Shown: positions 39,247-59,875, counted from the first letter of the stretch. The stretch is 64,000 bases of DNA from Bacteroidia bacterium (GCA_039630245.1 JBCNVK010000004.1:5403-69402), one strand, 5' to 3'. Made by a program: numbers and translations. Notes: a model not told the origin generated them from the sequence alone.

Positions 39247-40644
39247 CTATAGAACGTAGGCATGCTGCGTGGCCTGCGCCAGCGAATCCAAGTAGGCCAT
39301 GTCCCCTACAAGGGTAAAAAGCGCCGTACTATCTCGGCCTAAGCTGGCGGCATAAAGGAGGCTACTCATAGGCCAGGCGTAGGCGGTCCACACGTAGTAG
39401 TTGAATTCGGGTGTTAGACTAGCAAAATGAAGTATGGCCTTGAATTCGCCCTCTTGGCGGCAGCTTTCTACCAGACGGCGGGTATGCCCTAGGCTTAGCT
39501 CGAGCGTGCGTGCGGAATAGCCAATCCGAAGCGCATTTTCCATTATCAGGCCTGCGGCTAAGAGGCTTCCTACTATTTTTTCGCTGGGCCTTTTCAGCCA
39601 GGCGAGGCCCGTGAAGGTGCCTACGCCGAGGGGGACGATTACGCCGAGCCCATAAAACTCCATGGCGGCGGGATGTTCGCCCTGCCAGAGGTAAATGGTG
39701 AGGTATAGCGCCGCTGCTAGGCTTGCGCTCACCACCGCTAAGAGGAGGCCCACCCCGCTCCAGCCATAACCTATGGGAAGGTAAAACCCTACTAGAGCTG
39801 TAACCATCAAGGTAAAGGGGTGATGGAAGGGGTAGAAATTCTTAAGATAGATACCCATGCGTGAGGCCCCAAAGCCTTGGCTGAAGAGTGTGCGAAGCTT
39901 AGTCAGGAGCTCACTCAGCGGCACGGCCTTCGTAGCTTCATAGCCGGTCAGAAATACAAAGTACTTCAGAGCGACTAAGGTGAGGCTCAAGCCTACTAGG
40001 CTAGCGCTGAGCCAGAGGTCTTTTCGGCGGCTGAGAAAAAAGACCAGCAAAGCTCCTTCTAAAAGTACAAAACCGCTTATAGGGTGCGCAAAGAAGAGCC
40101 CAGCGATGGCTAAGCTAAGCCCCAGCGCTAAGTAAAAGTAGCGCACACGTGAGGTCCTTTGAAGGGCCATAAGCCAAATCGCCGTACTACTCCCAGCTAA
40201 AGAGAGAGCCAGCGTAGCGGAATTTGTACTGTAAAACACATCGCGCGAAAGAAGATACGGTAGAGTAGGCAGAAAAGCCAGGCATTTTTCTTCCAAAGCA
40301 TCCGCCAGTCTATACACCACTATGAATCCCAAGAGCCCGACCAGAAGGTAGCCCAAGGAAAATAGAGCTAAGACGGCGTGGAAAGGCAGGCCCAGCTTTA
40401 CGCCTAGCCAGGTAGGGCCATGCGCTAGAAGATGCGCATACCGCTGGTGGTAAATAGCTATATCTCCTAACCCTACAAGGCGATAAAAAAGGTAAGCCCA
40501 GTCGTACCAAAAGGCCCTTTCCTGAGCAAAGACCAGAGAAAGAAGGGCAAAATAGATCCATACTCCCCAGCCTAGGTGCAGGAGAAATTTCTGAAAAATC
40601 CTACTCAGATCTTCTTGGGCTGGTGCAGAAAGGGGGAATCGCAT
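39247..40644 (-). CDS. Polytopic membrane protein (possible GT39/83-like glycosyltransferase or DUF2079). Start moved to ATG 40644.
   Basis: About 12 TM helices. A TATCTTTG motif lies 6 nt upstream of the ATG on the minus strand. Confidence 0.5.
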   Translation of the reverse strand: MRFPLSAPAQEDLSRIFQKFLLHLGWGVWIYFALLSLVFAQERAFWYDWAYLFYRLVGLGDIAIYHQRYAHLLAHGPTWLGVKLGLPFHAVLALFSLGYLLVGLLGFIVVYRLADALEEKCLAFLPTLPYLLSRDVFYSTNSATLALSLAGSSTAIWLMALQRTSRVRYFYLALGLSLAIAGLFFAHPISGFVLLEGALLVFFLSRRKDLWLSASLVGLSLTLVALKYFVFLTGYEATKAVPLSELLTKLRTLFSQGFGASRMGIYLKNFYPFHHPFTLMVTALVGFYLPIGYGWSGVGLLLAVVSASLAAALYLTIYLWQGEHPAAMEFYGLGVIVPLGVGTFTGLAWLKRPSEKIVGSLLAAGLIMENALRIGYSARTLELSLGHTRRLVESCRQEGEFKAILHFASLTPEFNYYVWTAYAWPMSSLLYAASLGRDSTALFTLVGDMAYLDSLAQATQHAYVL

Positions 40645-40701
40645 CGCCGCCAAAGATAGCGGGAAGCTATAAGGGATAGGCGTTTCACCGTATTTTTGGC
40701 C

Positions 40702-43700
40702 ATGCGCCGGCTTTTATATGGTCTGGCGGGAGGGCTGGGAATTCTCCTTCTACTGGCCCTGGTTATACCCTTTTTCCTGCGCGATAAGGTGGATGCGCTC
40801 CTGAAAGCCCAGATAAATAAAAGTCTCAACGCCGTAGTAGATTACAATCGGCTGAGCCTTTCTTTCTTTCGGCACTTTCCAGCCCTTACTCTACGGCTAG
40901 AGGGGCTTAGAGTCGTCAATAAAGCTCCTTTTACCGGAGATACGCTGCTGGCCTGTGAGGCCCTTGACGTGGGAGTGAATGTGTGGAAGGCTCTGAAAGG
41001 GGAGGTAGAAGTTACGCGGTTTTACCTTATTCGGCCGCGCATACTTGCTCAGGTACGCCGCGATGGTCAGGCCAGCTGGGCGATTACCTTGCCCGATACG
41101 ACGGCTGCGCCAAAGGCCGCTGAGCCAGCTGATACAGGCGCTTTTCGCCTAGCGCTTCATCGCTATGTCATTCAGGACGGCTGGGTGGCTTACCATGACT
41201 CCGCCGCAGGCCTCTTTGCCCGACTGGAAGGCCTCACCCACACGGGCCAAGGCGACTTCAGCCAAAAGGAATTACAGCTGGAAACCGACACGCGCATTGC
41301 GCGCACTTTCTTCACTATGGGCGAGACAAGCTATCTCACAGGCCAAACGCTGGCGGCAGGCATAGATTTAGACATAGACTTTCCGAATGCCCGCTACACC
41401 CTTCGACGAGGCCTAGTGCAGCTAAATGACCTCAGGCTGGAGCTTAGCGGTAAGATCAGCCGGCCTGATACCCTCACTACCCTATTGGACTTGCGCTTTG
41501 CGGCGCCGAAAGCCTCCCTAAAGGAGCTTCTCTCACTCATACCTGCCGTTTTTCGGAAGGGTTATGAGAGCCTTTCCACGGAAGGCGCTTTGACGCTGGA
41601 GGGGTATGTACAAGGGGAGCTACGGGATTCCCTTTTGCCGGCTTTCGGGCTTTCCTTGCGTGTGGAAAAAGGCAAGGTAATCTACAAAGACCTACCTAAG
41701 CCGCTGGAGGATGTGGAAATACGCCTCAAGGTGGAAAATCCCGCCTCTACCTTGGAAAGCCTACAGGTAGCCTTAGACACTTTTCACCTACGCGCAGGGA
41801 GTACACGGCTTAGCCTACGCTACCGTAGCCGAGGCTTACGCACCCTCAATCTAGAAGCTATCGCCACGGGCCAAGGTAATTTAGCCGACTTTGCCAGCGC
41901 TCTGCCTTTGGGCTACGAATTGCGCGGAAACTTTGACTTAGGCCTGAATATCCAAGGCACCTATGCCAAAAATCGCCTCCCGGCTATTGCGGGCCGCTTC
42001 AGCCTGCAAGAGGGGTATGTCAAAGCTGCAGCTTTTCCTACGGCCGCCGAAAATATCGCCATAGAGTTTGCGGCGGAAAGTCCTGATGCCTCACCGGCCC
42101 GCACCACAGCCACCCTACGGCGCCTCTATGCCGTAGTCGCAGGCGAACCCATAGAAGCCAACCTCAGCGTACAGAATTTAGAGGCCCTCAATTACCAAGC
42201 CGAAATAAAAGCCCGGGCGGACTTGGAGAAGCTGGCGCACCTTTTACCCTTGGACAGCACCCAGCTGGCGGGTAAAGTGGCGCTGCAGCTCAGTACGCGT
42301 GGCAGCCGTGAGGCCTTAGAAAAGCACGATTACACCCGCCTGCCTACTCAGGGGTCTCTGGCGATTCAAAATTTAGCCTACCGCAGTCCGGCTCTGCCCC
42401 AAGGCCTAAATATCCAGCAGGCCAATTTTAGCTTCACGCCGCGGTATGCAGAACTGCAAGGCTACAAAGGGACCATAGGAAACTCGGATATTGCGCTGGA
42501 TGGCCGCCTAGAAAACTACCTAGGCTACCTCCTAAAAGATGAGAAGATCATAGGCCAGCTCAGCCTGAGAAGTAATCATCTGGACCTCAACCAGTGGGTT
42601 TCCAAAGAGCCTGCGCCCCAGCCCCAGCAGCCAGCCGACACCAGCGCGCCCTTAGAAGTAGTAGTGCTTCCCGCCAATATTGACTTCACCTTTGAGGCCC
42701 AGATAGGCGAAATGCTGTATGAAAAAATGCGGTTTCGGAACGCGCGCGGGCGCATTATTCTGCGTGACCAGGCACTGAAATTAGAAGGTTTTGAAATGGA
42801 AGGCTTTGGGGGTAAGTTTGCGCTGGAGGGCAAATATATCGCCCCGGATAAGCAAAATGCCCGCTGGGACATGGGATTTGAACTGCGTGGCGTACAGGTA
42901 GAGGAGGTAGTGCCCCATTTTCCTACTATCCAGAAGCTAAGCCCGATTGTAAAGCGTACCCGAGGTCAAGTTAGCCTTTCGCTTAAGGCAGCCAGTGCTT
43001 TGAAGCCTGACCTTACGCCCGATTTAGCGACGCTCTCGGGAAGCGGTTTAGTGGAGGTTTTACAAGCCACTGTAGAGGGTTCTACAGCCCTCTCGGCCTT
43101 TTCGGCCGCGGCTAAGTTGCCGGCTCTCACGCCCATGCAGCTGAGTAACACCCGCATTCGCTTCCAGCTGCGTAATGGCGAGCTTTTGGTAGAGCCTTTT
43201 ACCGTAGCCGCTGGCCAATACAAGCTGGAAGTAGGCGGCGTAACCCGCTTAGACCAAACGATAGACTATGTGATGGGGCTGGAAGTGCCGGCGAGCTGGG
43301 CGCAAGGTGCGCTTCAAGCCCTAGGCCTGCCCTTAGCCGAGGGAACTACCGTGCGGCTTTTGGCGGATGTAGGCGGTAGCGTAACTCAGCCGAAAGTAAA
43401 AGGCATTCGGCCCGCCCAAGGGCGCGGCGGGGGCGTTTCCGAAGCCGCTACGGCACGCTTAGAAGCCGAAAAGCAGCGTTTGGAAGCCGAGCTGCGTGCG
43501 CGAGAGGATAGCCTACGCCGAGCCTTAGAGCAAAAGCAGCGCGAGGAGGCCGAGCGGCTGCGTCGTGAGGCGGAAGAGCGTGCCCGTCAGGAGCAAGAGC
43601 GCCTCCGCCGCGAAGCCGAAGAGCGCGCCCGCCAAGAGCAAGAACGCCTCCAACGCGAGGCCGAAGAACGCGCCCGCCAGCTGGAGGAGGAAAAACGCAA

Positions 43701-43743
43701 AAAGGAAGAAGAGCTGCGCCGGCACCTTCCCTTCGGTCGCTGA
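40702..43743 (+). CDS. AsmA-family outer-membrane assembly/lipid-transport-like protein with a C-terminal EAEERARQEQERLRR coiled-coil repeat
   Basis: N-terminal TM anchor, a long beta-rich AsmA/DUF748-like body, and a C-terminal charged repeat. Start ATG 40702 is preceded by a TATTTTTG motif. Confidence 0.6.
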   Translation: MRRLLYGLAGGLGILLLLALVIPFFLRDKVDALLKAQINKSLNAVVDYNRLSLSFFRHFPALTLRLEGLRVVNKAPFTGDTLLACEALDVGVNVWKALKGEVEVTRFYLIRPRILAQVRRDGQASWAITLPDTTAAPKAAEPADTGAFRLALHRYVIQDGWVAYHDSAAGLFARLEGLTHTGQGDFSQKELQLETDTRIARTFFTMGETSYLTGQTLAAGIDLDIDFPNARYTLRRGLVQLNDLRLELSGKISRPDTLTTLLDLRFAAPKASLKELLSLIPAVFRKGYESLSTEGALTLEGYVQGELRDSLLPAFGLSLRVEKGKVIYKDLPKPLEDVEIRLKVENPASTLESLQVALDTFHLRAGSTRLSLRYRSRGLRTLNLEAIATGQGNLADFASALPLGYELRGNFDLGLNIQGTYAKNRLPAIAGRFSLQEGYVKAAAFPTAAENIAIEFAAESPDASPARTTATLRRLYAVVAGEPIEANLSVQNLEALNYQAEIKARADLEKLAHLLPLDSTQLAGKVALQLSTRGSREALEKHDYTRLPTQGSLAIQNLAYRSPALPQGLNIQQANFSFTPRYAELQGYKGTIGNSDIALDGRLENYLGYLLKDEKIIGQLSLRSNHLDLNQWVSKEPAPQPQQPADTSAPLEVVVLPANIDFTFEAQIGEMLYEKMRFRNARGRIILRDQALKLEGFEMEGFGGKFALEGKYIAPDKQNARWDMGFELRGVQVEEVVPHFPTIQKLSPIVKRTRGQVSLSLKAASALKPDLTPDLATLSGSGLVEVLQATVEGSTALSAFSAAAKLPALTPMQLSNTRIRFQLRNGELLVEPFTVAAGQYKLEVGGVTRLDQTIDYVMGLEVPASWAQGALQALGLPLAEGTTVRLLADVGGSVTQPKVKGIRPAQGRGGGVSEAATARLEAEKQRLEAELRAREDSLRRALEQKQREEAERLRREAEERARQEQERLRREAEERARQEQERLQREAEERARQLEEEKRKKEEELRRHLPFGR
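43564..43680 (+). repeat. About 2.6 imperfect tandem copies of a 45-bp unit inside the AsmA-family gene (encodes EAEERARQEQERLRR)
   Basis: The units at 43564-43608, 43609-43653 and 43654-43680 differ mostly at synonymous positions. Confidence 0.7.
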
Positions 43744-45124: not shown

Positions 45125-45790
45125 GGCTTCGGCGGCACCCTCGCGCAGGATCCGACCCCCATGGAGAAGGTAGGCCCGCTGCGTAATGCTCAAGGTCTCA
45201 TGCACATTATGGTCGGTGATAAGAATGCCTATGCCCCGTTGAGCCAGACGCACAATAATCCCCTGTATCTCTTCCACAGCAATCGGGTCTACGCCCGCGA
45301 AGGGCTCATCCAAAAGCAGGAAACGCGGTTCTACGGCCAGAGCGCGCGCAATTTCGGTTCGGCGGCGCTCTCCCCCCGAAAGCTGCTGGCCTAGCGAATG
45401 CCGCACCCGCTGCAGGCTAAACTCCTCCAAAAGCGCCTCTATACGCTCCCGAATCTGCTTTCGGCTTAGCCCCGGACGCAGCTCAAGCACCGTGCGCAGA
45501 TTATCCTCTACGCTCATGCGCCGAAATACCGAAGCCTCCTGCGGCAGGTAGCCGATGCCCATTTGGGCCCGCTTGTACATAGGTAGGTGGGTAATGCGCT
45601 CCGCCCCTAAATAAATCTCGCCCGCATCCGGCCGAATAAAGCCCACAATCATGTAGAAGGTCGTAGTTTTTCCTGCGCCATTGGGGCCCAGCAGCCCCAC
45701 GATTTCCCCGGGCGCCAGCTGAAGGGAGACCTGATCCACTACCTTGCGCTTGCCATAAGTTTTCTGGAGGTTCTCAGCGCGCAGAAGCAT
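45062..45790 (-). CDS. lptB: LPS export ABC transporter ATP-binding protein
   Basis: Walker [10 protein letters not shown], signature LSGGERRR, Walker [12 protein letters not shown]. Start set to the ATG preceded by TATTTTTG. Confidence 0.85.
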
Positions 45791-45824
45791 GTGCAAAAAT
45801 AGGCGCAGAGGACCTGGGGTAGGC

Positions 45825-45832
45825 TACCTTTG
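45825..45832 (+). promoter_or_regulatory. TACCTTTG -7 element, 4 nt upstream of the carB GTG. The divergent lptB element TATTTTTG (minus strand, plus-strand 45794-45801) is 3 nt upstream of its ATG.
   Basis: A 46-bp divergent intergenic region holds both motifs. Confidence 0.55.
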
Positions 45833-45836
45833 TAGC

Positions 45837-48653
45837 GTGGCACACCTCCTCATCTTAGGCAGCGGGCCTATTGTAATCGGGCAGGCGGCGGAGTTTGACT
45901 ATTCGGGCTCGCAGGCGGCTCGGGCCCTGCGCGCTGAGGGCTATACGGTTCATCTCCTCAATTCCAACCCTGCCACGATTATGACGGATCCGATTACGGC
46001 TGACTATGTGCATCTACTTCCGCTCACGCCAGAGAGCGTGGAGGCTATTCTTCAACGCTACCCCATAGAGGCGGTGCTCCCTACGATGGGCGGGCAGACA
46101 GCCCTCAATCTCGCCATGGAATGCGCCCGATTAGGTCTGTGGGAGCGGTACGGGGTGCGGGTAATAGGGGCTTCCCTGCTCGCCATAGAGGTAGCCGAAG
46201 ACAGGGAGAAGTTCCGGCAGTGGGGTGAGAGTTTAGGCCTTCCCATGCTGCCATCAGGCATAGCTCGCTCCTATTTAGAGGCTAAGGATCTGGCTCAGCG
46301 CATAGGGTATCCCGTAGTACTGCGACCTTCCTTCACCTTAGGGGGCGCTGGGGCCCAAATCGTCCATAACAAAAGCGAGCTGGAGCGCGCCATCGGCCGC
46401 GCGCTGGCTCTCAGCCCCATCCATGAAGTGCTTGTAGAAAAAAGCGTAGCCGGCTGGAAGGAATTTGAGCTTGAGGTCATGCGCGATAAAGATGGCAACT
46501 TCATCGTGGTCTGTACGATAGAAAACCTTGATCCCATGGGCATCCATACGGGCGACTCCATAACGGTGGCGCCAGCGCTTACTCTCCCCGACTACCTCAT
46601 GCAGCGCATGCGGAACTACGCTAAAAAGCTCTTGGGCTCTTTTCCAGATTTTGCCGGCGGCTGTAATGTGCAATTCGCCCTCAGCCCCCACTCGGATGAG
46701 CTATGCGTGATAGAAATCAATCCGCGCGTGTCCCGCTCTTCGGCCCTGGCCTCAAAGGCTACGGGCTACCCTATTGCGCGCATTGCGGCCCTCTTGGCCG
46801 TAGGTAAGCGGCTGGACGAAATCACCAATCCCATCACGGGCACTACTTCGGCCTTTTTTGAGCCCAGCCTGGATTATGTGGTGGTCAAGGTGCCCCGCTG
46901 GAATTTTGACAAGTTTCCGGGGGCTAATCGCCAGCTTGGAATGCAAATGCGCAGCGTCGGCGAAGCGATGGGGATTGGACGTTCCTTCATAGAGGCCTTG
47001 CAAAAGGCCATTCAGTCCTTAGAGCTGCGGCGGAATGGACTGGGCGCCGATGGCCGCGAGGTACAGGACTTGGGTCAGCTTCTGCATAGCTTAGAGCACC
47101 CTTCCTGGCACCGCATCTTCCATATCCACGATGCGATTTTGGCCGGCATCCCCATCCGCACTATTCATAAGCTTACGGGCATAGATGAATGGTTCCTTCA
47201 TGAAATTCAGGCGCTTGTGGATCTAGAGCGGGAGCTAAGCCAGCACACTCTGGAAACTCTTACACCGGAGCTTCTCTGGAGGGCTAAGCAAATGGGCCTC
47301 GGGGATCGGCAAATTGCCCACCTGGTCCAAGCCTTAGAAAGCCAGGTTTATGCCCTACGGCAGAAATGGGGGATACGGCGCGTCTACAAGCGCGTGGACA
47401 CCTGTGCGGCGGAGTTTGAGGCCCAAACGCCCTACTACTACTCCACCTTTGAGCCCCAAGGGGAGGATGAGGGGGTTACCTTCCCCGCCGCCGATGTAGG
47501 CAAGCCGCGCCTTCTTATCCTGGGCTCAGGCCCCAACCGAATCGGCCAAGGCATAGAATTTGACTACTGCTGCGTACACGGCGCCTTAGCCGCCCGGCAG
47601 CTAGGCTATGAAGCCCTCATGCTCAACTGCAACCCCGAAACCGTCTCCACCGACCCCGACATTTCGGACCGGCTCTACTTTGAGCCCGTCTTTTGGGAGC
47701 ACGTGTATGAGGTCATAGTGCGGGAAAAGCCAATAGGCGTAGTGGTTCAACTGGGCGGCCAGACACCTCTCAAACTGGCTGAAAAGCTTCACCGCTATGG
47801 CATCCCCCTTATTGGAACCTCGTACGAAAGCATTGATATCTCCGAGGACCGAGGAAAATTCTCAGAGCTCTTAAGGGATTTAGGCATTCCCTATCCGCCT
47901 TTTGGTGTAGTGCGCAGCCCAGACGAGGCTTTAGCGCTGGCCGAAAAGCTCGGCTACCCCGTCTTAGTACGCCCCAGCTACGTACTGGGTGGGCAGCATA
48001 TGCGCATCGTGGTTGATGAAGAGGAGCTAGTAGAACAAATCGTGGCCATCCTCCGCAATATGCCGGGCAACCGCATTCTGATAGATCGCTTTCTGTATGG
48101 GGCTATTGAGGCTGAGCTGGATGCTCTTTCCGATGGGGAAGCTATAGGCGTGATGGGGATTATGGAGCACATTGAGCCGGTGGGGGTGCATTCGGGCGAC
48201 TCTACGGCGGTGCTGCCGCCCTTCTCCCTTTCGCCCGAGAAGCAGGCCATAATGCGCCATTATGCCGAGCAGATCGCCCGCGCGCTGAGTGTCAAGGGCT
48301 TCCTAAATGTCCAGTATGCCATCCACGAGGATACGGTCTATGTGATAGAAGCGAATCTACGCGCCTCTCGCACCGTACCTTTTCTCTGCAAGGCCCAGGA
48401 TAAGCCTTTCGTTCAGTGGGCCATGGAAATCCTTCTGGGACGCAAGCGGATAGAGGATTTCAACTTTCCCGGCCCACGTCGCCGCTATGCCCTCAAGCTG
48501 CCTGTGTTTTCGTTTGAGCGCTTCCCGGAGGTAGAGAAAACGCTAGGCCCTGAGATGCGCTCTACGGGGGAGGAGATTCGCTTCATAGAAGGGCTGGACG
48601 ATCCGCTCTTTCAAAAGCTCTATGCGCAGCGCAGCCTTTACCTGAGCCGATAG
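45837..48653 (+). CDS. carB: Carbamoyl-phosphate synthase large subunit, short form lacking the C-terminal MGS-like domain. GTG start.
   Basis: Two ATP-grasp halves (ILGSGPIVIGQAAEFDYSGSQA ... ILGSGPNRIGQGIEFDYCCVH). The ORF-track N-terminal extension overlaps lptB and is spurious. Confidence 0.9.
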   Translation: MAHLLILGSGPIVIGQAAEFDYSGSQAARALRAEGYTVHLLNSNPATIMTDPITADYVHLLPLTPESVEAILQRYPIEAVLPTMGGQTALNLAMECARLGLWERYGVRVIGASLLAIEVAEDREKFRQWGESLGLPMLPSGIARSYLEAKDLAQRIGYPVVLRPSFTLGGAGAQIVHNKSELERAIGRALALSPIHEVLVEKSVAGWKEFELEVMRDKDGNFIVVCTIENLDPMGIHTGDSITVAPALTLPDYLMQRMRNYAKKLLGSFPDFAGGCNVQFALSPHSDELCVIEINPRVSRSSALASKATGYPIARIAALLAVGKRLDEITNPITGTTSAFFEPSLDYVVVKVPRWNFDKFPGANRQLGMQMRSVGEAMGIGRSFIEALQKAIQSLELRRNGLGADGREVQDLGQLLHSLEHPSWHRIFHIHDAILAGIPIRTIHKLTGIDEWFLHEIQALVDLERELSQHTLETLTPELLWRAKQMGLGDRQIAHLVQALESQVYALRQKWGIRRVYKRVDTCAAEFEAQTPYYYSTFEPQGEDEGVTFPAADVGKPRLLILGSGPNRIGQGIEFDYCCVHGALAARQLGYEALMLNCNPETVSTDPDISDRLYFEPVFWEHVYEVIVREKPIGVVVQLGGQTPLKLAEKLHRYGIPLIGTSYESIDISEDRGKFSELLRDLGIPYPPFGVVRSPDEALALAEKLGYPVLVRPSYVLGGQHMRIVVDEEELVEQIVAILRNMPGNRILIDRFLYGAIEAELDALSDGEAIGVMGIMEHIEPVGVHSGDSTAVLPPFSLSPEKQAIMRHYAEQIARALSVKGFLNVQYAIHEDTVYVIEANLRASRTVPFLCKAQDKPFVQWAMEILLGRKRIEDFNFPGPRRRYALKLPVFSFERFPEVEKTLGPEMRSTGEEIRFIEGLDDPLFQKLYAQRSLYLSR

Positions 48654-48658: not shown

Positions 48659-49657
48659 CTATAGGTTCCAGGTATAGGCTATGAGTTGCCACCCGCGGGC
48701 GGCCCGCCGAAGCTCTTTAGGGGAAAGCGTGGGGATAGCGGTGGGCAGCTGGGGAATTTGCCAAAGGCAGGCCCACCACCCCGCGAGGAGAAAGTTTTCC
48801 GCCCGATGAATCCAAGTAAAGAAGGCCGGTAGGCGTTGGGGCGAGGGCCGGAAAGGGCGGCTGAGAAAATCCTGAGCGGCTTGGTAGGTAGCGTAGGGCA
48901 GTCCCGTCTCTATCCAGAGTTCTAATCCTTTCGCAAAAGGCACCCATTGCGCCTGGCAGGCTATTTGACGCTCGGCGCAGAGATAGTGTAGGAGGGCGTC
49001 GGCCTGCTGCCACAAGGCGGCCCAGGCGGCCAGAGAAGGAGAGCCGTTCAGCTGCCAGCGTATATACACCACCCCGGGCCCTTGATGGGCAGGCGAAGAA
49101 AGCGTAGGAGGCGGTTGCGGAGGCCAATACGCCTCTGAGACGCTGCCCGCCACTACCTCCCGCCCCAAATGCAAAAGCGGCATGGGGATTTTTCCCCGCA
49201 GCACCCCTCCTACCCCCCCAGCCTGCCAGTAGCGCGTAAAGTACTGCGTGAGCGCCAAAGGCGATAAATCCACTGGCAGAGTATCCTCGTAGGCTACTTG
49301 GAAGCTGCGGCTGAGTTCTGGCGGATTTTCTACTAGGGGTATAGCATTCTGCTGGAGGCGCTGCGGAAAGCGCTGAATAGCCCCGCGTAGAACATGGAAA
49401 AAAGTAAAAAGGCCTTCGGGTGTAGCTTCGCCTTCAACGCAAAACCACTGGCCGCGGCGCCGAAACCTATACCGCACCCCGTGGGTATAGGCCACCTGAC
49501 GCAGGAGCGAATCCGCAAAAAGGCCCTCCGCTACCGTGCGCGCTACGGCTTCCCCACGCCCACGTTCTAATGGGTGAAAAAGAAGCCACTGGATATAGCC
49601 CGTTTCCTGAGTATAGGCGCAGAGGGCTTGGGCCCACAAGCCTAACAGCTGAAACAT
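48659..49657 (-). CDS. Hypothetical Trp/Arg/Leu-rich protein (332 aa)
   Basis: Long clean ORF with host-like codon usage. It overlaps the upstream gene's end by 16 nt. Confidence 0.45.
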   Translation of the reverse strand: MFQLLGLWAQALCAYTQETGYIQWLLFHPLERGRGEAVARTVAEGLFADSLLRQVAYTHGVRYRFRRRGQWFCVEGEATPEGLFTFFHVLRGAIQRFPQRLQQNAIPLVENPPELSRSFQVAYEDTLPVDLSPLALTQYFTRYWQAGGVGGVLRGKIPMPLLHLGREVVAGSVSEAYWPPQPPPTLSSPAHQGPGVVYIRWQLNGSPSLAAWAALWQQADALLHYLCAERQIACQAQWVPFAKGLELWIETGLPYATYQAAQDFLSRPFRPSPQRLPAFFTWIHRAENFLLAGWWACLWQIPQLPTAIPTLSPKELRRAARGWQLIAYTWNL

Positions 49658-51087
49658 CGGAAGCGAATAGCTTTTGGGGGAAAACCCGCCGGCAAAGGGC
49701 GCAGATAGATCTCAAGGGCTTCAGGCGGAATCTGGTGGGTCTGGATGAGTTCCAGCCGAAGCTGGTGAAGATACTGGGTAAGGCGTTTGCGCTCGCGTGC
49801 CGTGCGATAGTACGCGCTAAGCTCGCAGGGTCGGCTGCAGCCTGGCTTCCAGAAAAGCCGAAAGGCAGCAGCCCATTCCCCTAAAGGCGGTAGGCCTGGC
49901 CCTGTCCAAAGAAAATCAGGCACCGCTACGGCCGGCGGGCGCGCCGGAGGCGGTGCAAAAACCACCGTATCTGAAGCTAAGCTTTCATTTCCCATCCATA
50001 TTCCCCGAGCCCTGAAAGGCCAGCCGCTCTGCCAGACCTGCGCCGGCAGACTATCACTGAGCCCCAGCGTATCCCCCATCAGCACTGGCGTGATCCAAAG
50101 ATCAGGATATTCCTCGGGATGGGCGCACACCTTGCGAAAAAAGAGCTCAAATGCCGCTTGCCATGCTCGCGCTTCTAAGGAGTCTTGCGCTGCAAGTGTG
50201 CTCAGGCGCCGAAGGAAAGCGTAGCTGCGTCCATCTACGCGCGCCTGAAGCAGCAGGTGCGTCCTGCCTTTTAGCTGCATGGACCATTGCAGGGGGGGAG
50301 CCTCGCGCTGCCACCGGCTGAGGAAAGCCTCCCGAAAAGCCAGCCGTTCCTTCCAACTCAGGGGCCCTTCCACAGCAAGCCCTACATAACCTGGATAGGC
50401 CCAGAGATTTTGTATCAGCGTATCCGGGAGGGGAGGCGTAACGAGGGAAGGAAGCGAGTCACTCACCGACTTAAGAGATATTTTCAACGGGAGGCGGCCG
50501 ATTTGGAATTTTTCCCGAAAGGATAAGCCGCCCCCAAAAATAATATGCAAGGATTCTGGTGCTAGGTAGCGCTGGATGTAGGCTAGGGCTTGCGGCCAGT
50601 CTAGGCTGGGCGGAAGGAGGGGACGACCTCGCAAAAGCCATTCCACTTCTTGCCTTAGGGAGAAGCCGATCCAGGCCTTGGCAGCCCGCTGGCGCAGGCG
50701 CTGCCAGGCCAGGCTATCCTGAAGGGGGAGAGCCCGCAAAGCGGCATAAAGCCAGCCTACCGCTTCCACCGCCATACTGCGCGGTACCGTCAGGCATACC
50801 GCCGCCCCCTCTGGCATACTCCAAAGGCTCAAATGCCCGCCTAGGCTTCCAAGCTGACGACGAAGCGCCGCTGAGGAAGGATTTATCGTGTCCTCCTGCG
50901 CTACTAAGAAGGCTACGATGCGCCCCAGCTCTTGATACGCTGGGGGGTGGCGCCACGCCAAAGCTACCCAGAGCAAAGGACGCTTACTGCCCAGCTCAGG
51001 AAACGTGACTAAGCGCGGCTTTCCACTCTGTAGGTCAATAACTTGACCGTAAATAAGCCCTAAGAGCCCCCAGAGGGAGGTACCCAT
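49642..51087 (-). CDS. Hypothetical Trp-rich protein (481 aa)
   Basis: Long clean ORF. It overlaps the ppx/gppA 3' end by 28 nt. Confidence 0.45.
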   Translation of the reverse strand: MGTSLWGLLGLIYGQVIDLQSGKPRLVTFPELGSKRPLLWVALAWRHPPAYQELGRIVAFLVAQEDTINPSSAALRRQLGSLGGHLSLWSMPEGAAVCLTVPRSMAVEAVGWLYAALRALPLQDSLAWQRLRQRAAKAWIGFSLRQEVEWLLRGRPLLPPSLDWPQALAYIQRYLAPESLHIIFGGGLSFREKFQIGRLPLKISLKSVSDSLPSLVTPPLPDTLIQNLWAYPGYVGLAVEGPLSWKERLAFREAFLSRWQREAPPLQWSMQLKGRTHLLLQARVDGRSYAFLRRLSTLAAQDSLEARAWQAAFELFFRKVCAHPEEYPDLWITPVLMGDTLGLSDSLPAQVWQSGWPFRARGIWMGNESLASDTVVFAPPPARPPAVAVPDFLWTGPGLPPLGEWAAAFRLFWKPGCSRPCELSAYYRTARERKRLTQYLHQLRLELIQTHQIPPEALEIYLRPLPAGFPPKAIRFRCFSC

Positions 51088-52631
51088 GCGAGCCGAAGCT
51101 GGAGCCGACGACCATAGCTGCGCTCAAAAAAGTCTTCCACCTCAGCGTATATGGAACTCAAAAAGCGCGTCGCACCGGCCTCCGTGGTATCTACGATAAG
51201 CTCAACCTGCTTATCATTCCAACTGCACCGCACCCCAAGGGGGTCGTGGCGCAGGTATTTAGCCAGTTGATCGGCCAGCCGCACAAGCGGCGCTAAAAGG
51301 CCCACCAGTTTTTTCTGAGCTCGGGGCAGCGTAGCATAATGAAAGTGCTCAGAAGAGGGAAGGCTCTTGCGATGGTAGCGCACGAGGTTAGCCATAAGGA
51401 GCAGCTCCTCCTGCGTAAAGCCGGGCATAGGCGTATTGAGGAGAATGTAGAGCCCATGCTTGTGATGACCGCTGGGGTTTATGAAGTGGCCAATATCGTG
51501 GAGGTAAGCCGCATAGGCCACCCATTCTTTTTCCTGCTTGCTAAGGTGGTGGAGGGGCGCCAGAAGGTCAAAAAGCTTCTCGGCCCAGCGGCGCGTTTGC
51601 TGGGCATGTAGAAGGGAAAGCTGGTACTTCTGGGCCAAAGCGCTTATGGTACGCTCCCGAAGCGGCTGTACGGTCAGGCCGGGTAAGTTAAAAAGGCGTC
51701 CCGCATACTCATACACTAGCCCTTCCCGCAAGGCATACTCGCTAATCGTAATGGTCTGAATAGGAAAAAGCTGGAGCACTTCATAGACGAGCGCGGCGCC
51801 ATAGGGCATGTAGGGGGCGCGTTCAGCCTGCATCCCCTTAAGACGCACTCGGTCTACAAGGGGCAGCGTAGTAAGCTTCTGGTAAACGGGATAAAAGACC
51901 ATAGGGCTGAAGCGATAGCCATGCAGGGCCGGCTCCCCCGAGTCTCCATTGCTGCTGTAGGCTACCAAGCGCCCCAGGGTCTTGAAAGTGCCAGCCGTAC
52001 CGATGAGGTGACGCACCCGCAGCGTTTCTACCGCTTCACGCAGCGGCTCTAAGGTAGTACGAATGTACCGATGCAGGGCCTGTAGCTGGGCCGGCGAAAG
52101 GGGATCAGGTTCAGGAAACTGGCGCTGAAGTACACTTACTCCCAGCGGAAAGCTATGGAGATAAAGGATTTCTCCCTTTTGGCCCCAGATGAACTCCACC
52201 GATCCGCCCCCGATGTCCATGACTAAGTAGGGCTCCTCAGGCAGAGGCAGACCATGCCGCACCCCTAAATGAATCAGGCGGGCTTCTTCTACACCCGAAA
52301 GGATGCGCACTTCTACACCCAGTTCGTGGCGGATAGTTTCTTGAAGCAAAGCGGCATTCTGGGCAAGGCGGAAGGCCTCCGTCGCACAGGCTAAAAAGAC
52401 CTCTGCGCCGTGTTGGCGGGCCTCTTCCACCAGAGAGCGCAGCACCTCTACGGCCCGCTGCATACCCAAGTCAGAAAAAGCCGGCGGGGAGCCTTCCAGC
52501 TCCCGACCTAAGAAGACAAACTCCCGGCGGCGGCGCTCTAAATATACCTCTTGCTGCGCCATGTCCAGCCGGGCCAGCAAAAGATGGAAGGAATTCGTCC
52601 CTAAATCTAAAGCGGCGATACGTTTATGCAT
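51060..52631 (-). CDS. Ppx/GppA-family exopolyphosphatase / pppGpp phosphohydrolase with a C-terminal HD domain
   Basis: N-terminal ALDLGTNSFHLLLA actin-like ATPase fold. The C-terminal HD motif is LHDIGHFI. Confidence 0.8.
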   Translation of the reverse strand: MHKRIAALDLGTNSFHLLLARLDMAQQEVYLERRRREFVFLGRELEGSPPAFSDLGMQRAVEVLRSLVEEARQHGAEVFLACATEAFRLAQNAALLQETIRHELGVEVRILSGVEEARLIHLGVRHGLPLPEEPYLVMDIGGGSVEFIWGQKGEILYLHSFPLGVSVLQRQFPEPDPLSPAQLQALHRYIRTTLEPLREAVETLRVRHLIGTAGTFKTLGRLVAYSSNGDSGEPALHGYRFSPMVFYPVYQKLTTLPLVDRVRLKGMQAERAPYMPYGAALVYEVLQLFPIQTITISEYALREGLVYEYAGRLFNLPGLTVQPLRERTISALAQKYQLSLLHAQQTRRWAEKLFDLLAPLHHLSKQEKEWVAYAAYLHDIGHFINPSGHHKHGLYILLNTPMPGFTQEELLLMANLVRYHRKSLPSSEHFHYATLPRAQKKLVGLLAPLVRLADQLAKYLRHDPLGVRCSWNDKQVELIVDTTEAGATRFLSSIYAEVEDFFERSYGRRLQLRLAWVPPSGGS

Positions 52632-53175
52632 ATTTGCCCTCTAAAAGAGCCTGAAGGTACGCTAAGGCCTCTGGGGCTTCATCAAAATGCAGCTCCTGAG
52701 TTATGCGCTGAATTTCCCGCCGCTCCTCTCCCGAAATAAGCTCAGGGACAGCCCCTGCCCCAGCCTCTATCCGCCGCAAACGCAGAAGTAGATTCTTGAC
52801 AATATCCCCCGTACTGGCAGCCGCCGTGGCGTAAAGAAACTCCGCCTGCTCCTTGTACATTTCCGGGTTTTCCTGAAGAAAGGCATACAGCACTTTCATG
52901 AAGCGCTCTCGCCAGAAAGCCGCATCTATGGCGAGATAGCGAAGCTCAGCCCGCCAATCCAACTCCGTAGGCGATACCGATTCGTGGCGGCAAAGGAAAG
53001 CGACAATCTCATCCAGCCGATGCACCTCCGACGTATCGGTAAAGCCGTCCGCCTGCGCTACCAGCACGGCGGGAAATACCCGCAGAAGAATTTCAAATGC
53101 CTTTCGGTCTATCTGCATGCGGCGCTCACGCTGGTAATCGCTCCACAGAGCGTCGCACAGTTCGGCATATCCCAT
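52624..53175 (-). CDS. Hypothetical protein (183 aa, TerB/DjlA-N-like helical protein?)
   Basis: Clean ORF between lepA and ppx with 4- and 8-nt overlaps. Confidence 0.4.
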   Translation of the reverse strand: MGYAELCDALWSDYQRERRMQIDRKAFEILLRVFPAVLVAQADGFTDTSEVHRLDEIVAFLCRHESVSPTELDWRAELRYLAIDAAFWRERFMKVLYAFLQENPEMYKEQAEFLYATAAASTGDIVKNLLLRLRRIEAGAGAVPELISGEERREIQRITQELHFDEAPEALAYLQALLEGKYA

Positions 53176-53177
53176 GG

Positions 53178-54959
53178 CTAATCTAATTTCAATACGGCTA
53201 TGAAGGCCTCCTGCGGCACCTCTACCGACCCCACCTGACGCATGCGCTTTTTGCCTTCCTTCTGACGCTCCAGAAGTTTGCGCTTACGCGTGATGTCTCC
53301 ACCGTAGCACTTAGCCGTGACGTCCTTGCGCAGCGCCCGAAGGGTCTCCCGCGCAATCACCCGTCCATAAATAGCCGCCTGGATAGCTACCTCAAACTGC
53401 TGGCGCGGAATAAGCTCCTTGAGCTTCTGGCACAGCCGCCGACCCCAATCGTAGGCCTTGTCCCGGTGAATAATGCAGCTTAGCGCATCCACTCGCTCGC
53501 CATTCAAAAGAATGTCCATCCGAACCAGATCACTCGGCCTATAGCCAATAACCTCATAGTCCAGCGAGGCATACCCGCGCGAGAGCGACTTGAGCCGATC
53601 ATAGAAGTCAAAAATGATTTCAGCCAAAGGCATCTCAAATACCAGCTCCACCCGATTAGAGGCTAAGTAGGTTTGACTTTTGAAAATGCCTCGCCGACCG
53701 ATGCACAGCTCCATTAGAGGCCCTATGAAAGCGGCATCCGTAATAATCTGGGCCCGCACATACGGCTCTTCTAAATGGTCCAGCTTAGCCGGATCGGGGA
53801 GCTGAGCGGGATTGATGACTACGACCTTCTCGCCAGTGCGCAGGTAGGCGTGGTAAGGCACATTTGGCACCGTAGCCACCACTTCCATCCCAAACTCGCG
53901 CGCTAAGCGCTCCTGCACAATCTCCATGTGCAGAAGGCCTAAGAATCCCACCCGAAAGCCAAACCCCAGCGCAGCCGACGTCTCAGGCTCAAATCGGATG
54001 GCCGCATCATTGAGCCGCAGCTTCTCCAGCGCCTCCCGCAAGTCTTCAAACTGGTCTGCCTGTACTGGATAAAAGCCCGCAAATACCATTGGCTTCATTT
54101 CTCGAAAGCCCTTCAGCGGCTCTCGTGCAGGCCGTGAGGCGTCCGTAATCGTATCCCCTACCTTGATTTCCTGGATGTTTTTTATCCCAGCAATCACATA
54201 CCCCACCGAACCGCAGGGGATGAACGGCTGGAGCTGGCGCTGCGGCCTGAAGACGCCCACTTCTTCTACCACGTACTCCGCACCCGTAGCCATGAGCCTA
54301 ATCCGCATGCCCGGCTGCAAGACCCCTTCCTTGACGCGCACATACGCTACCGCTCCGCGATACGGATCAAACTGCGAGTCAAAAATAAGCGCCCGCAGGC
54401 TCTCCTGGGACTTATCCGCTGGCGGCGGGATGCGTGTCAAAATCGCCTTCAAAATCTCTTCTACCCCAATCCCCATTTTAGCGCTGGCGTAGATTACCTC
54501 CTCAGGGCGACAGCCTAGCAGTTCTACTAAATGCTCGCGCACCGCCTCCGGACGCGCCGCCGGCAGGTCAATCTTATTGATCACGGGAATAATCTCTAAA
54601 TCCTGCTCAATGGCCAGATAGAGGTTAGCTAGGGTTTGGGCCTGTACGCCCTGCGTGGCATCTACGACTAAAAGCGCGCCTTCGCAAGCCGCAATCGCCC
54701 GCGAAACCTCATAGGAAAAATCCACATGGCCCGGGGTATCTATGAGATTTAGGGTGTAGCCTTGATAGTGCATTTGGACCGGGTGGCTCTTGATAGTGAT
54801 GCCCTTTTCCCGTTCTAAGTCCATGCTATCCAGCACTTGCTCCATCATCTGGCGTGGGGGAATCGTAGCCGTAGCCTCTAATAGACGATCGGCTAAGGTG
54901 CTCTTGCCATGGTCTATGTGGGCAATAATGCAAAAATTCCGAATGGTCTCTGCCCCCAT
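53178..54959 (-). CDS. lepA: Elongation factor 4 (LepA)
   Basis: [23 protein letters not shown]1 motif, DTPGHVDF, and the LepA C-terminal domain. Confidence 0.95.
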
Positions 54960-54983
54960 GGGTCAAGCAAAGATAAGGACATG

Positions 54984-56060
54984 CTAGGAGTAAGTGCGCC
55001 CTTTCCAGCTAAAGGAAGGGCGAATAAGAGCAATAAGAGCCACGCTGGTCATATAGACTGGATAGACGAGAGCCGTAAAGAGCCAAGCCTTCCAGTGAGG
55101 CAAAGGGCTGCGCATCTGACCAAAACTTCGGTAGGCTATCCAGACCTGCCCAGCACTTAGGCTGAGCCAAGCTAAAACGGCGGGAAGGGGATATAGGAAG
55201 AGGCCAAGGAGCAATCCCATTTGGGCTAGGGCTACCAGACGCAGGCCCCAAGGCGTCCAGAAGGTGGGGTACATCCGCCGCTTGGAAAGCCAGCGCAGAC
55301 GCTGATGAAGTAGAGCCGACCAAGTAGGCATAGGCCTAGTGGTAACAACAGCCGGGCTGAAAGCAAGGGCTTTTTTCCCGTAATGGAGGCAAATGCGCTG
55401 TACGAGAAGGTCGTCATCGCCGCTTGGGGAAGCGTGAGCCGGGCCCCATCCGCCCACGGCTTCAAACGCTGCGCGGCGATAGGCTAAAAGCGCGCCATTC
55501 GCCGTAATAGGCTCGCCGCGCTGCCAACTGCCTGCTGTAAGCCCCATCAGCCCCGCCAGCTCAATCCGCTGAAGCTCCCCCAACCACCCCCCCACCGGCC
55601 TAAGCCGAACCCACCCCCCCACCACCTGCACGGCCGAATCCCCGAAATACGCCACTATCTTAGCCAAGGTATCTGGCTCATGCTCCGTATCCGCATCGGT
55701 TGTAAGAATAATATCCGCCGTCGTGCGACTAATTGCATGGCGAAGTGCGGCCTTCTTGCCTTTTTCGGTAGGCGGGAGCTGGCAGGGATAGATAAAGGCG
55801 TAGCGGGCTGCCCACGCACAGGCTACCAGCCAGGTATCGTCCTCGCTATGATCATCTACAATCCAGATTTCGTCGGGGAGGCGGCTCTGACGAAGCAGGC
55901 TAGCCAGGCACAGGGGTAAGTTCAAGGCCTCATTCCGAGCCGGGATAACTACCGCTACGCGCAAGGCCGCTGGAGAAGGCGCCGCCCGAAGGCGCCAGCG
56001 CCCCCACCGCCACAAAAGATACCCATAGCCGCCCCACATTAGGAGGAGCAGGTAGAGCAT
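54984..56060 (-). CDS. Family-2 glycosyltransferase (membrane)
   Basis: VVIPARNEALNL ... DAD motif (TDADTEH) ... C-terminal TM helices. Confidence 0.75.
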   Translation of the reverse strand: MLYLLLLMWGGYGYLLWRWGRWRLRAAPSPAALRVAVVIPARNEALNLPLCLASLLRQSRLPDEIWIVDDHSEDDTWLVACAWAARYAFIYPCQLPPTEKGKKAALRHAISRTTADIILTTDADTEHEPDTLAKIVAYFGDSAVQVVGGWVRLRPVGGWLGELQRIELAGLMGLTAGSWQRGEPITANGALLAYRRAAFEAVGGWGPAHASPSGDDDLLVQRICLHYGKKALAFSPAVVTTRPMPTWSALLHQRLRWLSKRRMYPTFWTPWGLRLVALAQMGLLLGLFLYPLPAVLAWLSLSAGQVWIAYRSFGQMRSPLPHWKAWLFTALVYPVYMTSVALIALIRPSFSWKGRTYS

Positions 56061-56078: not shown

Positions 56079-56666
56079 ATGGCAAAGGTAGAAATGGAGG
56101 TTGTGGGCCTCCACCGCTCGCCTACGGAGTCTTACAATGCCTTCATTCTGGTGCTTAAGGAGCGCTACGGCGCGCGCCGCCTACCCATCGTCATCGGTCT
56201 GCCCGAGGCCCACGCTATCAATATCCACATGGAAAAAATCCAGCACCCCCGCCCACTTACCCATGACCTTTTTGTGAATGTGATGAACGAACTGAACGTG
56301 CGCCTTTTAGAGGTAGTTATTCACAAGCTGCAGGACTCTACTTTTTTCGCCTACCTTCTCTTGGAAAATAGCGAGGGCCAAATAGTGGAGGTAGATTGCC
56401 GGCCGAGTGATGGTGTAGCTTTGGCGCTGCGGGCCCGGGCTGCCATTTTCTGTGAAGAGGAAGTGCTTCAGAAAGCCGGTCAGCCTGGCCCAGAGGAAGA
56501 AGAAGAGTCGCCGTCCACTCGCCGTGCGCCGCGCAGCGTATCCGCCTTGCGTGAAGAGCTACAAAGGCAGCTGGAAGAGGCCCTGGCCCGAGAAGATTAC
56601 GAAAAAGCCGCAGAAATTCGAGACAAGCTCAAAAAGCTAGGCTTGGGCGGTTCAGAGTCCACCTGA
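56079..56666 (+). CDS. Bifunctional nuclease (DUF151) family protein with a C-terminal UVR motif
   Basis: DUF151 core (AFILVLKE ... RPSDGVALALR) and a UvrB/C-like EDYEKAAEIRDKLKKL. Confidence 0.7.
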   Translation: MAKVEMEVVGLHRSPTESYNAFILVLKERYGARRLPIVIGLPEAHAINIHMEKIQHPRPLTHDLFVNVMNELNVRLLEVVIHKLQDSTFFAYLLLENSEGQIVEVDCRPSDGVALALRARAAIFCEEEVLQKAGQPGPEEEEESPSTRRAPRSVSALREELQRQLEEALAREDYEKAAEIRDKLKKLGLGGSEST

Positions 56667-57967: not shown

Positions 57968-58132
57968 ATGGCCCGTAAGCCTGACAAGCGCGTCTATGTG
58001 CGACTTAACCGAGCGCGCAAACGAATCCAACGCTGCCGCGTCTGGTCGCCCATCCGAAGCCCGAGAGCAAATGCCCTCCAAGAAGCCAACCTTAAGCTCC
58101 TGAACACCCTGAAGCAATCGCTCCAGCAATGA
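57968..58132 (+). CDS. Small highly basic protein, 54 aa (MARKPDKRVYVRLNRARKRIQRC...). Not in the ORF track. ATGA-coupled to the downstream oxidoreductase.
   Basis: An exact TACCTTTG motif at 57954-57961 lies 6 nt upstream of the ATG. The reading frame ends in a TGA overlapping the next gene's ATG. Confidence 0.4.
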   Translation: MARKPDKRVYVRLNRARKRIQRCRVWSPIRSPRANALQEANLKLLNTLKQSLQQ

Positions 58133-59061
58133 GTCGACGGGTCCGCGTGGGACTCGTCGGCCTGGGCCACATGGGCCGCCTCCACCTAAAACACCTATTG
58201 GAGCTACCCCTCGCTGAAGTAGTGGCGCTTTTAGACACCGACCCGGCGGTGCAGCAGGACCTTCAGGCCCAGGGCTTGCCGGTAGTACCCTCCTACGAGG
58301 CCCTCTTAGAGGCTAGCGAGGCGGTAATTATTGCTTCCCCTACTCCTACGCACGCGGCCTACGCCGAAGCAGCTCTGCGGGCCCGACGCCATGTACTGAT
58401 TGAGAAGCCCGTTACTACAAGCTTAGAGGCCCTTGAGCGCCTCCTTACCCTTCAAGACGAAGCCGGCGTGGTAGCCTTAGTAGGACACATAGAGCGTTTC
58501 AATCCGGCCTTTCAAGCCCTGTGGCCCCTCCGCCAGCAGTTTCATCACTTTACCTTTGAGCGCCTAGCGCCCTGGAGCCCCCGCGGCAGTGAGGTCTCCG
58601 TGGTACTGGACCTGTTAGTGCATGATTTAGACCTTTTTTGGGCCCTTACAGAGGGCTGCGTAGCGGATCTGAGGACGGTGGCCTACCGCACTTTCACCGA
58701 AAAGGCCGATACGGTACAAGTCTGGATAGACCTCGTAGATGGACGCGGCGCAAGCTTTAGTATAAGTCGGAATGCGCCTTATCGTCAGCGGCGCCTCTTA
58801 GCCCATGGCCCAACCCTCTGGGCCGAGGCGAACCTCCTCACACGCACCGTACAACTTTGGGATATTACCTCAAATCCACCCCAGCCTTTACCCCTCACCG
58901 TCCCCTCTTCCGATGCCTTACAGGCAGAGCTGGAACACTTTTTGCTGGCGATTACGGAGGGTTTCTCTTCCCCCCTGTCCTTGGAACATGTATATGGTGT
59001 CATGCTGTGGGCGTGGAAAGTGGAGGCTTTGGCTGAGCAGCGCTTGGTATTTGCTCCTTAG
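58129..59061 (+). CDS. Gfo/Idh/MocA-family NAD(P)-dependent oxidoreductase
   Basis: Rossmann N-terminus VRVGLVGLGHMGRLH and a C-terminal Gfo/Idh/MocA domain. Confidence 0.75.
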   Translation: MSRRVRVGLVGLGHMGRLHLKHLLELPLAEVVALLDTDPAVQQDLQAQGLPVVPSYEALLEASEAVIIASPTPTHAAYAEAALRARRHVLIEKPVTTSLEALERLLTLQDEAGVVALVGHIERFNPAFQALWPLRQQFHHFTFERLAPWSPRGSEVSVVLDLLVHDLDLFWALTEGCVADLRTVAYRTFTEKADTVQVWIDLVDGRGASFSISRNAPYRQRRLLAHGPTLWAEANLLTRTVQLWDITSNPPQPLPLTVPSSDALQAELEHFLLAITEGFSSPLSLEHVYGVMLWAWKVEALAEQRLVFAP

Positions 59062-59875
59062 CTGCTCCTCGCCTAAAGCTCTACCCCCCGCCTACCTCCA
59101 GCTAGACTCGGCGCGCGTAGTTTTAGAGCGTGACACACTCCAAATAGAAGCCCCGATAGATGCGTGGGTTTATCCGCAAGGGCGCTTCCTGAGCGTAGTG
59201 GAACCGGGCGAATACCTTCCGATTGTGCCTGCTACGCAACAGCCTATTCTCTTGGCCGGGGGCGTGCGCGTGAATGGCCTCGGTGCGGTGCGCCGGCCTT
59301 ACCCCTTCTGGCAATTTGACACCTTACCCTATCCCTTAGCCCCTGAACAAACCTACACCTACCGACCTACCTACACCTATTTCCCCGATACCCTTTTAGA
59401 ATACCTTCTTCGGGAAGATTTTGAGAGTCCTCAGATGGCACTCCGGGTGCTACCGGGAGAGCCGCCGGGGCGTGCTACGCTGCGCCGATTACCAAACCAC
59501 CCCCGGCGCGGCTTCTGGGCCGCTGAAATTAGCCTACCTCCAGCCACTACTTTCCAGGCTGAAGCCGCTACACCCTTTGAGTTTCCTAAAAACGAACTCT
59601 GGGCCGAAATCTCCCTTCGCGGCGACCGAAACCTGGGAGTGGGCCTCACCGTAGAAAACCGCCAAACTGGAGCCGTAATAGAGCGGCAGGTACAGCTTAT
59701 CCTCCGTCCGCCGGATGTGGGATGGGGCACATTTTACATTGACCTTTTGCCTTGGCTTCGTCAGAAAGGCACGTTGTACCGCTACCGTCTCTACCTTACA
59801 AGCCAAAGCGATAGCACGCGCCCCGCTACCCTTTACTTAGACGACCTGCGCCTAATAACCTTCCGGTCCAGATGA
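58994..59875 (+). CDS. Putative lipoprotein of unknown function. Start uncertain: the ORF-track start at 58805 lies inside the upstream gene.
   Basis: An internal Met is followed by a signal/lipobox-like LWLSSAWYLLLSCSS. ATGA-coupled to the downstream sugar transferase. Confidence 0.35.
   Translation: MVSCCGRGKWRLWLSSAWYLLLSCSSPKALPPAYLQLDSARVVLERDTLQIEAPIDAWVYPQGRFLSVVEPGEYLPIVPATQQPILLAGGVRVNGLGAVRRPYPFWQFDTLPYPLAPEQTYTYRPTYTYFPDTLLEYLLREDFESPQMALRVLPGEPPGRATLRRLPNHPRRGFWAAEISLPPATTFQAEAATPFEFPKNELWAEISLRGDRNLGVGLTVENRQTGAVIERQVQLILRPPDVGWGTFYIDLLPWLRQKGTLYRYRLYLTSQSDSTRPATLYLDDLRLITFRSR

Follow-up and report, generated by a model that had tools for sequence, protein, structure and literature searches.

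What joins a housekeeping translation factor, a phosphohydrolase of the Ppx/GppA type and three proteins without a significant family match in one tightly packed run of genes? The question is raised by a locus on the minus strand of a 64,000-nucleotide (nt) stretch of Bacteroidia bacterium DNA (GCA_039630245.1 JBCNVK010000004.1:5403-69402; hereafter the window), in which lepA, ppx and the genes that we call p183, p481 and p332 follow one another. An earlier, sequence-only reading of the window had seen in them an unexplored stress or stringent-response module. Here we report that comparative evidence supports a single conserved, clade-specific operon of all five genes. In the reading that we favour, to which we assign a probability of roughly 0.6, the housekeeping genes lepA and ppx have been joined to lineage-specific accessory genes, including those of an M16-like exported pair, under shared regulation. 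An integrated stress or stringent-response module is unsupported: p481 and p332 are M16-like and carry export signals, and the relA/spoT gene of the window is not tied to the cluster.

Gene order and junctions in related Bacteroidia

The ORF (open reading frame) table places five consecutive ORFs at 48659-54959 on the minus strand, in the order lepA, p183, ppx, p481 and p332, just where the sequence-only reading had them. The first cistron, lepA (53178-54959), encodes elongation factor 4 (EF4; 593 amino acids (aa), identified by TIGR01393 and LepA_C). Behind it come p183 (52624-53175), read from the ORF table and its homologues as encoding an acidic, cytoplasmic protein of 183 aa, and ppx (51060-52631), which encodes a long-form Ppx/GppA phosphohydrolase of 523 aa recognised from Pfam and PDB. 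The product of p481 (49642-51087; 481 aa) would comprise, by profile, a signal peptide, an M16-like body and a C-terminal alpha/beta domain, and that of p332 (48659-49657; 332 aa) appears by its predicted fold to be a compact two-domain M16-fold protein. Between lepA and p183 there is a gap of 2 nt, earlier given as 3 nt; the remaining junctions are overlaps of 8 nt (p183/ppx), 28 nt (ppx/p481) and 16 nt (p481/p332), as had been described.

One genome per GTDB species was scanned, which gave 15 loci encoding p183, and three metagenome loci (L001-L003) were added. The order lepA-p183-ppx-p481-p332 is kept in all of them, wherever the contig reaches. The sequence-only reading had proposed asking whether lepA and ppx keep these partners in related genomes; across 15 species-level relatives they do. 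The relatives are all uncultured Bacteroidia/Bacteroidota metagenome-assembled genomes (MAGs) or metagenome contigs, many with names that point to hot springs, and the p183 protein of the window has a 100% identical counterpart in a MAG labelled "Bacteroidia bacterium". Identity to the relatives is ~82-88% for lepA, 52-67% for p183, 57-69% for ppx, 34-45% for p481 and 34-52% for p332; the closest relative, L004, stands above these general ranges, at 91-96% and about 90%. The genes p183, p481 and p332 were found only within this group.

Junction lengths are also kept. Apart from the frameshifted locus L015 and a few start calls, the spacing between lepA and p183 is +1 to +7 nt in the relatives, that between p183 and ppx is -8 nt in most, and the last two junctions are mostly -22 to -28 and -16 to -19 nt. 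The 8-nt p183/ppx overlap recurs in 13 of the 16 distinct relatives in which both starts were read. The flanks behave differently. In roughly half of the relatives lepA is preceded by a GT2 glycosyltransferase gene, which was undetected upstream in L010-L013, L017 and L018. On the downstream side, this window and L004 have a convergent carB, and others have a series of p345, a TetR gene and pstSCAB-phoU (L001 11032-16950, and also L009-L012, L015 and L018). The p345 product, of 345 aa and with no Pfam match, is encoded directly after p332 in many relatives; neither p345, the TetR gene nor the pst genes of the relatives occur within this window. Because order, junctions and the promoter box described below are kept while the flanks vary, the comparison supports a selected five-gene unit with translational coupling. 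In L015 (9135-16746, a KatS3mg026 relative) the matches to lepA, ppx, p481, p345 and the TetR gene are fragmented, which suggests an assembly rich in frameshifts and not genes in decay.

Measured against the closest relative (synonymous divergence, dS, ~0.5-0.7), the ratio of nonsynonymous to synonymous divergence (dN/dS) is 0.03 for lepA, 0.08 for p183, 0.04 for ppx, 0.11 for p481 and 0.13 for p332. The three unassigned genes are under purifying selection and are conserved beyond the strain, with ratios of 0.08-0.13. Decaying pseudogenes were considered for p481 and p332 and rejected on the values of 0.11-0.13 together with intact ORFs in the well-assembled relatives.

A single promoter box ahead of lepA

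The motif TAnnTTTG is the -7 element of Bacteroidetes promoters (PMC9723704, PMC6847099). In the window it occurs 52 times, compared with 26.8 expected, and none of 100 shuffles reached 52. Of these copies, TATCTTTG (54968-54975, minus strand) begins 16 nt ahead of the ATG of lepA, a position that implies a very short leader, and a box is found at the matching position (15-16 nt upstream) in 12 relatives. In this window the 60 nt before each of the p183, ppx, p481 and p332 starts contain no TAnnTTTG, so the single promoter motif noticed earlier, upstream of lepA, holds up at that distance. Both flanking genes have boxes of their own: GT2 in the window (56083-56090, 30 nt upstream of its ATG) and p345 in the relatives. 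Scans for generic sigma-70 promoters and intrinsic terminators gave nothing above chance, and Rfam and tRNA scans of the region gave no matches.

Many of the boxes in the window lie just upstream of ORF starts, at ~15-30 nt where checked; examples precede the ORFs starting at 4561, 13791, 19060, 19910, 21992, 22101, 35967, 40653, 45796, 54959 and 56079. Such distances suggest very short leaders in this organism.

Two divergent M16-like proteins without a zinc site

Neither distal protein is recognised by family models. Pfam and NCBIfam scans gave no match for p481 or p332, and with Pfam (Peptidase_M16 and Peptidase_M16_C) none appeared even at E<=10, whether the window protein, the family members or the consensus was used. 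For p332 the predicted structure has the two-domain alpha/beta LuxS/MPP-like arrangement of peptidase family M16 (pitrilysin/insulinase), and on that model the M16 fold is clear; a profile search of the PDB with p332 gave nothing. For p481 the evidence comes from a profile. Homologues are few (only 9 matches in a HMMER search over 1.84 billion representatives and 2 clusters in a word-based search, which returned 8 clusters for p332), and the profile was built from an alignment of 14 homologues from the related loci. Against the PDB its matches are bc1 core 1 and MPP-beta (E 5e-4 to 1e-3), aligned in register (positions 39-126 against chain 38-125) across the segment where active M16 enzymes have HxxEH. 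Foldseek with a low-confidence model of p481 likewise gave core proteins as best matches (E 0.04). We conclude that p332, by fold, and p481, by profile, are both very divergent M16-like proteins. The sequence-only reading had allowed that the two ORFs might turn out to be degraded M16-like or other housekeeping paralogues, or confined to one strain. M16-like they are, and they are neither degraded, nor ordinary housekeeping proteins, nor found in the strain only.

The residues that would bind zinc are missing from both families. HxxEH or HExxH is not conserved in any of 17 p481 or 16 p332 sequences; the p481 columns aligned to YFVEH of core 1 are hydrophobic (I57-V58-A59-F60-L61), and the first helix of p332 reads R40-T41-V42-A43-E44 in a manual alignment. 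Since the zinc-site residues are absent from both, p481 and p332 are, as far as sequence goes, most likely non-proteolytic.

The natural comparison is with heterodimeric M16B peptidases and their inactive relatives: Thermus TTHA1264/1265, Sphingomonas A1 Sph2681/2682, mitochondrial MPP alpha/beta, cytochrome bc1 core 1/core 2 and AlbE/AlbF. Compared with these, the similarity of p481 and p332 falls below every Pfam M16 threshold, the zinc motif is lacking in both partners rather than in just one, p332 is short (332 against ~410 aa), and p481 has an extra C-terminal domain of ~90 aa. The mitochondrial bc1 core proteins are alike in that both M16 partners lack the zinc site. The pairing of p481 with p332 is suggested by gene adjacency and the 16-nt overlap; by sequence the two do not appear to be recognisable paralogues.

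The last ~90 residues of p481 are predicted to form a beta-alpha-beta-alpha-beta-beta domain. A PDB profile search with this domain gave nothing, and Foldseek on the low-confidence model proposed the SiiA peptidoglycan-binding domain, with a probability of 0.99 but E 0.055. An OmpA/MotB-like identity was tried and rejected: in hhalign comparisons with Pal, OmpA and MotB the probability was 0.06%, and conservation of the peptidoglycan-binding D/N/R residues (TD..G..YN..LS..RA) is lacking.

In composition, the description of both proteins as unusually rich in Trp, Arg, Leu and Pro holds in part. Trp (4.8% in p332 and 4.4% in p481; window mean 2.2%, standard deviation 1.5) is moderately raised, as is Pro; Arg and Leu are at ordinary levels, and Trp is higher still in three other proteins of the window. 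Both are basic, with isoelectric points (pI) of 9.8 (p481) and 9.2 (p332), and p332 has four invariant Cys.

Predicted export of p481 and p332

Signal peptidase I of Bacteroidetes follows a Q-rule, by which Gln occupies the +1 position (PMC5837995, PMC10653852). The N-termini of both proteins show the corresponding pattern, a hydrophobic stretch followed by Gln. In p481 a putative signal peptide covers residues 1-14 with Gln15 at +1, and M1 and Q15 are invariant in 14 aligned sequences; in p332 the hydrophobic stretch is short and is followed by Q10, invariant in 9 aligned sequences. A type IX secretion cargo protein encoded in the window has the same pattern, as do others there that look exported. 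Judged from their N-termini, p481 and p332 are probably exported and act outside the cytoplasm. Such export signals would place them in a compartment other than that of EF4 and Ppx, and the difference in compartment makes a direct partnership with either unlikely.

Starts like that of p332 occur elsewhere in the window, in a DPP-IV/S9 peptidase (19944-21992, minus strand; MWGFWWLQ) and a GWxTD-domain protein (17630-19060, minus strand; MLAALFWLQ). Either start codons are under-called or signal peptides are unusually short in this lineage.

The cytoplasmic products

The lepA product is unambiguously EF4, with 963 bits against TIGR01393 (cut-off 533.9) and the GTP_EFTU, EFG_C and LepA_C domains (LepA_C E 1.3e-51). 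The ppx product matches three Pfam families, all above cut-off: Ppx-GppA (PF02541, E 4.6e-49, 167.8 bits), Ppx-GppA_III (PF21447, E 2.3e-30, 106.2 bits) and HD (PF01966, E 3.4e-07, 31 bits). Its architecture is an ASKHA N-terminal half followed by an HD-like domain III, and among the solved structures of the PDB it matches exopolyphosphatases (E 4.6e-52) and GppA (E 2e-39). It scores below every NCBIfam equivalog cut-off (TIGR03706 224 bits against 307, PRK10854 177.6 against 864, PRK11031 169.1 against 624), so that Ppx and GppA specificity are not separable. With the long-form enzymes (E. coli PPX 1U6Z, GppA 6PBZ and exopolyphosphatase 8JGO) it shares the Ppx-GppA and domain III/HD parts over ~450 residues. 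Its setting differs: the gene lies between lepA/p183 and the M16-like pair, not beside ppk.

The p183 protein has a pI of 4.9, no signal peptide and an invariant AQADGFxDxxE motif. Its 32 homologues, found by word-based search, all belong to the same Bacteroidia MAG/metagenome group, and Pfam and NCBIfam scans gave no significant family. Because of the near-constant 8-nt overlap with ppx, a Ppx-related role is our best guess; going by gene arrangement and motif, p183 seems tightly coupled to Ppx and is possibly a partner or a metal-binding accessory. Like TerB-like proteins (PF05099; the N-terminal domain of DjlA), p183 is small and carries an A-x-A-D-G-x-x-D-x-x-E motif; unlike them it gives no significant profile match, and membership is not established. 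Sub-threshold TerB matches occur in 11 of the 32 family members (best E 0.062), the consensus sequence has no TerB match, and a PDB profile search returned no TerB and only calbindin at E 0.92. An hhalign comparison with DjlA, at a probability of 1.5%, was likewise insignificant.

Neighbouring genes

The GT2 gene (54984-56060, minus strand; Glycos_transf_2 E 7.7e-27) has the orientation of lepA and ends 24 nt before it. Read-through from it could extend the unit to six genes in this genome; GT2 is a possible read-through partner outside the conserved core.

At the other end, carB (45789-48653, plus strand) is convergent with p332, the stop codons being 5 nt apart, and L004 is arranged alike. 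Its product has only 954 aa and aligns with positions 8-920 of an NCBIfam model of 1058 positions; Pfam lists no MGS-like domain for it, and it apparently lacks the C-terminal allosteric domain. Farther off, a 468-aa ORF without a Pfam match (39247-40653, minus strand) has a hydrophobic N-terminal stretch ending in FAQE; its neighbours are genes for a YchF GTPase (37656-38837) and an AsmA-like protein (40696-43743). A GFO/IDH/MocA oxidoreductase ORF (58129-59061, plus strand) overlaps a 356-aa ORF (58805-59875) by 257 nt; the latter has no Pfam match, and its start is probably over-called.

Discussion

In the reading that we favour, the -7 box just before lepA would drive one mRNA, and the downstream cistrons would probably be coupled in translation through the 2-nt gap and the 8-28-nt overlaps, as the conserved junctions suggest. 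The products would be EF4, a small acidic cytoplasmic protein, a standard long-form Ppx/GppA enzyme and two basic M16-fold proteins, p481 and p332, that would be exported by Sec and cut by signal peptidase I with Gln at +1. On the model of M16B pairs and of bc1 core 1/core 2, these two would most likely form a non-proteolytic, heterodimeric periplasmic clamshell that binds or scaffolds rather than cleaves. What the cytoplasmic genes and the periplasmic pair would share is growth-linked regulation from the lepA promoter, not a complex or a pathway. Co-transcription, export, the heterodimer and the absence of peptidase activity are what we infer from these comparisons, and shared regulation from the lepA promoter appears to be the most economical reading of them. 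In E. coli, lepA leads an envelope/export gene in the lepA-lepB operon. Here too lepA is promoter-proximal and the downstream genes would serve the envelope or export rather than translation; unlike in E. coli, those genes are p183, ppx and the M16-like pair and not signal peptidase I, and the lepA-p183-ppx-M16-like arrangement is seen only in this Bacteroidia MAG group.

Several observations weigh against this account. The M16 profile signal of p481 is limited to ~90 residues, its middle domain found nothing in a PDB profile search, its AF2 model (from a 3-sequence alignment) is poor, with a predicted local distance difference test (pLDDT) score of 41.5, and hhalign of p481 against p332 is insignificant. 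The loss of HxxEH in p332 is read from motif absence and a manual alignment, not from structural superposition. Only 9 residues precede Gln10 in p332 of this window, which is short for a Sec signal, and several N-regions of the p481 and p332 families lack positive charge. Within lepA and p481 there are three more copies of TAnnTTTG on the minus strand, and four relatives have the motif 52 nt before p332, so that internal promoters are possible. Finally, the clade is shallow (lepA 82-88%), and synteny may partly reflect shared ancestry.

Other explanations can be weighed against the same data. We give a small chance to a phosphate and envelope module, in which Ppx, with p183 as a metal-binding helper, would mobilise polyphosphate while the basic pair binds an anionic ligand: polyphosphate, phosphate-metal complexes or a cell-wall polymer. 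It would make sense of p345, TetR and pstSCAB-phoU following the cluster in many relatives, of a basic pair beside an acidic p183, of the weak TerB matches and acidic DG..D..E motif of p183, and of the weak resemblance of the p481 C-terminal domain to a peptidoglycan-binding domain. It sits poorly with the absence of pst genes beside the cluster in this window or its closest relative, with the p345 box, which marks a separate unit, and with the failure of the TerB and OmpA-like assignments in statistical tests. A slimmer chance goes to a lineage-specific module in which p183 tunes Ppx/GppA and a doubly inactive, basic M16-like heterodimer, co-expressed with EF4, binds or scaffolds in the periplasm; its ligands there, for example polyphosphate, phosphate-metal complexes or cell-wall polymers, are put forward just as tentatively.

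That all five products act jointly as a stress or stringent-response module, with p183, p481 and p332 as direct partners, we hold to be very unlikely. The operon is tight and conserved, the 8-nt overlap of p183 and ppx is present in most relatives, and a link between lepA and gppA has some logic: E. coli LepA binds guanosine tetra- and pentaphosphate ((p)ppGpp), ppGpp more tightly than pppGpp, and GppA converts pppGpp to ppGpp (PMC5845004). That loose logic is conceivable, and it meets an enzyme whose NCBIfam scores do not separate Ppx from GppA; no description of a lepA-exopolyphosphatase operon turned up in the literature searched. The export signals and conserved Cys of p481 and p332 point to a separate compartment, and a joint stringent-response role of these two with lepA and ppx is unlikely. 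A relA/spoT gene is indeed present about where it had been noticed (about 7 kb away in the sequence-only reading), at 61551-63812 on the plus strand. It lies ~6.6 kb from the cluster, beyond five unrelated plus-strand genes, and nothing except distance connects the two.

It is similarly improbable that the M16-like pair is an active, divergent periplasmic processing protease with a non-canonical metal site. The M16 fold of p332 is clear, its invariant residues H28, E36, H59, E124 and D125 lie near the expected site, and residues 28-32 read HPLEH or HLLEH in two relatives. The fifth position of that segment, HPLE(R/H/...), varies (R, H, L, V, W, N, S), however, and the segment is predicted to be strand or loop, outside the zinc helix; in p481 the aligned columns are I-V-A-F-L, and no member reaches any Pfam M16 model. 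Equally poor are the prospects of a historical accident of gene order among functionally and transcriptionally independent genes: the relatives are all close, p183, p481 and p332 are found only in this group, and Bacteroidota operons are often of mixed function, but repeated rearrangement has changed both flanks and left the five-gene core, overlap lengths and single box as they were, and overlapping start and stop codons leave no non-coding room for independent promoters.

For the biology of these bacteria, the lineage-specific module considered above would, if true, link translation state, (p)ppGpp/polyphosphate turnover and the envelope in thermophilic Bacteroidia. On the reading that we favour, a stable lepA-ppx operon is documented, with p183 as a reasonable candidate for a Ppx partner, and the current view of the stringent response is unchanged. 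Two orphan proteins are assigned to a known fold, as a pair confined to a small set of uncultured Bacteroidia, and they would add a bacterial case in which both M16 partners are apparently without a zinc site, like the mitochondrial bc1 core proteins. The value is mainly one of annotation, together with a modest lead on M16 pseudoenzymes.

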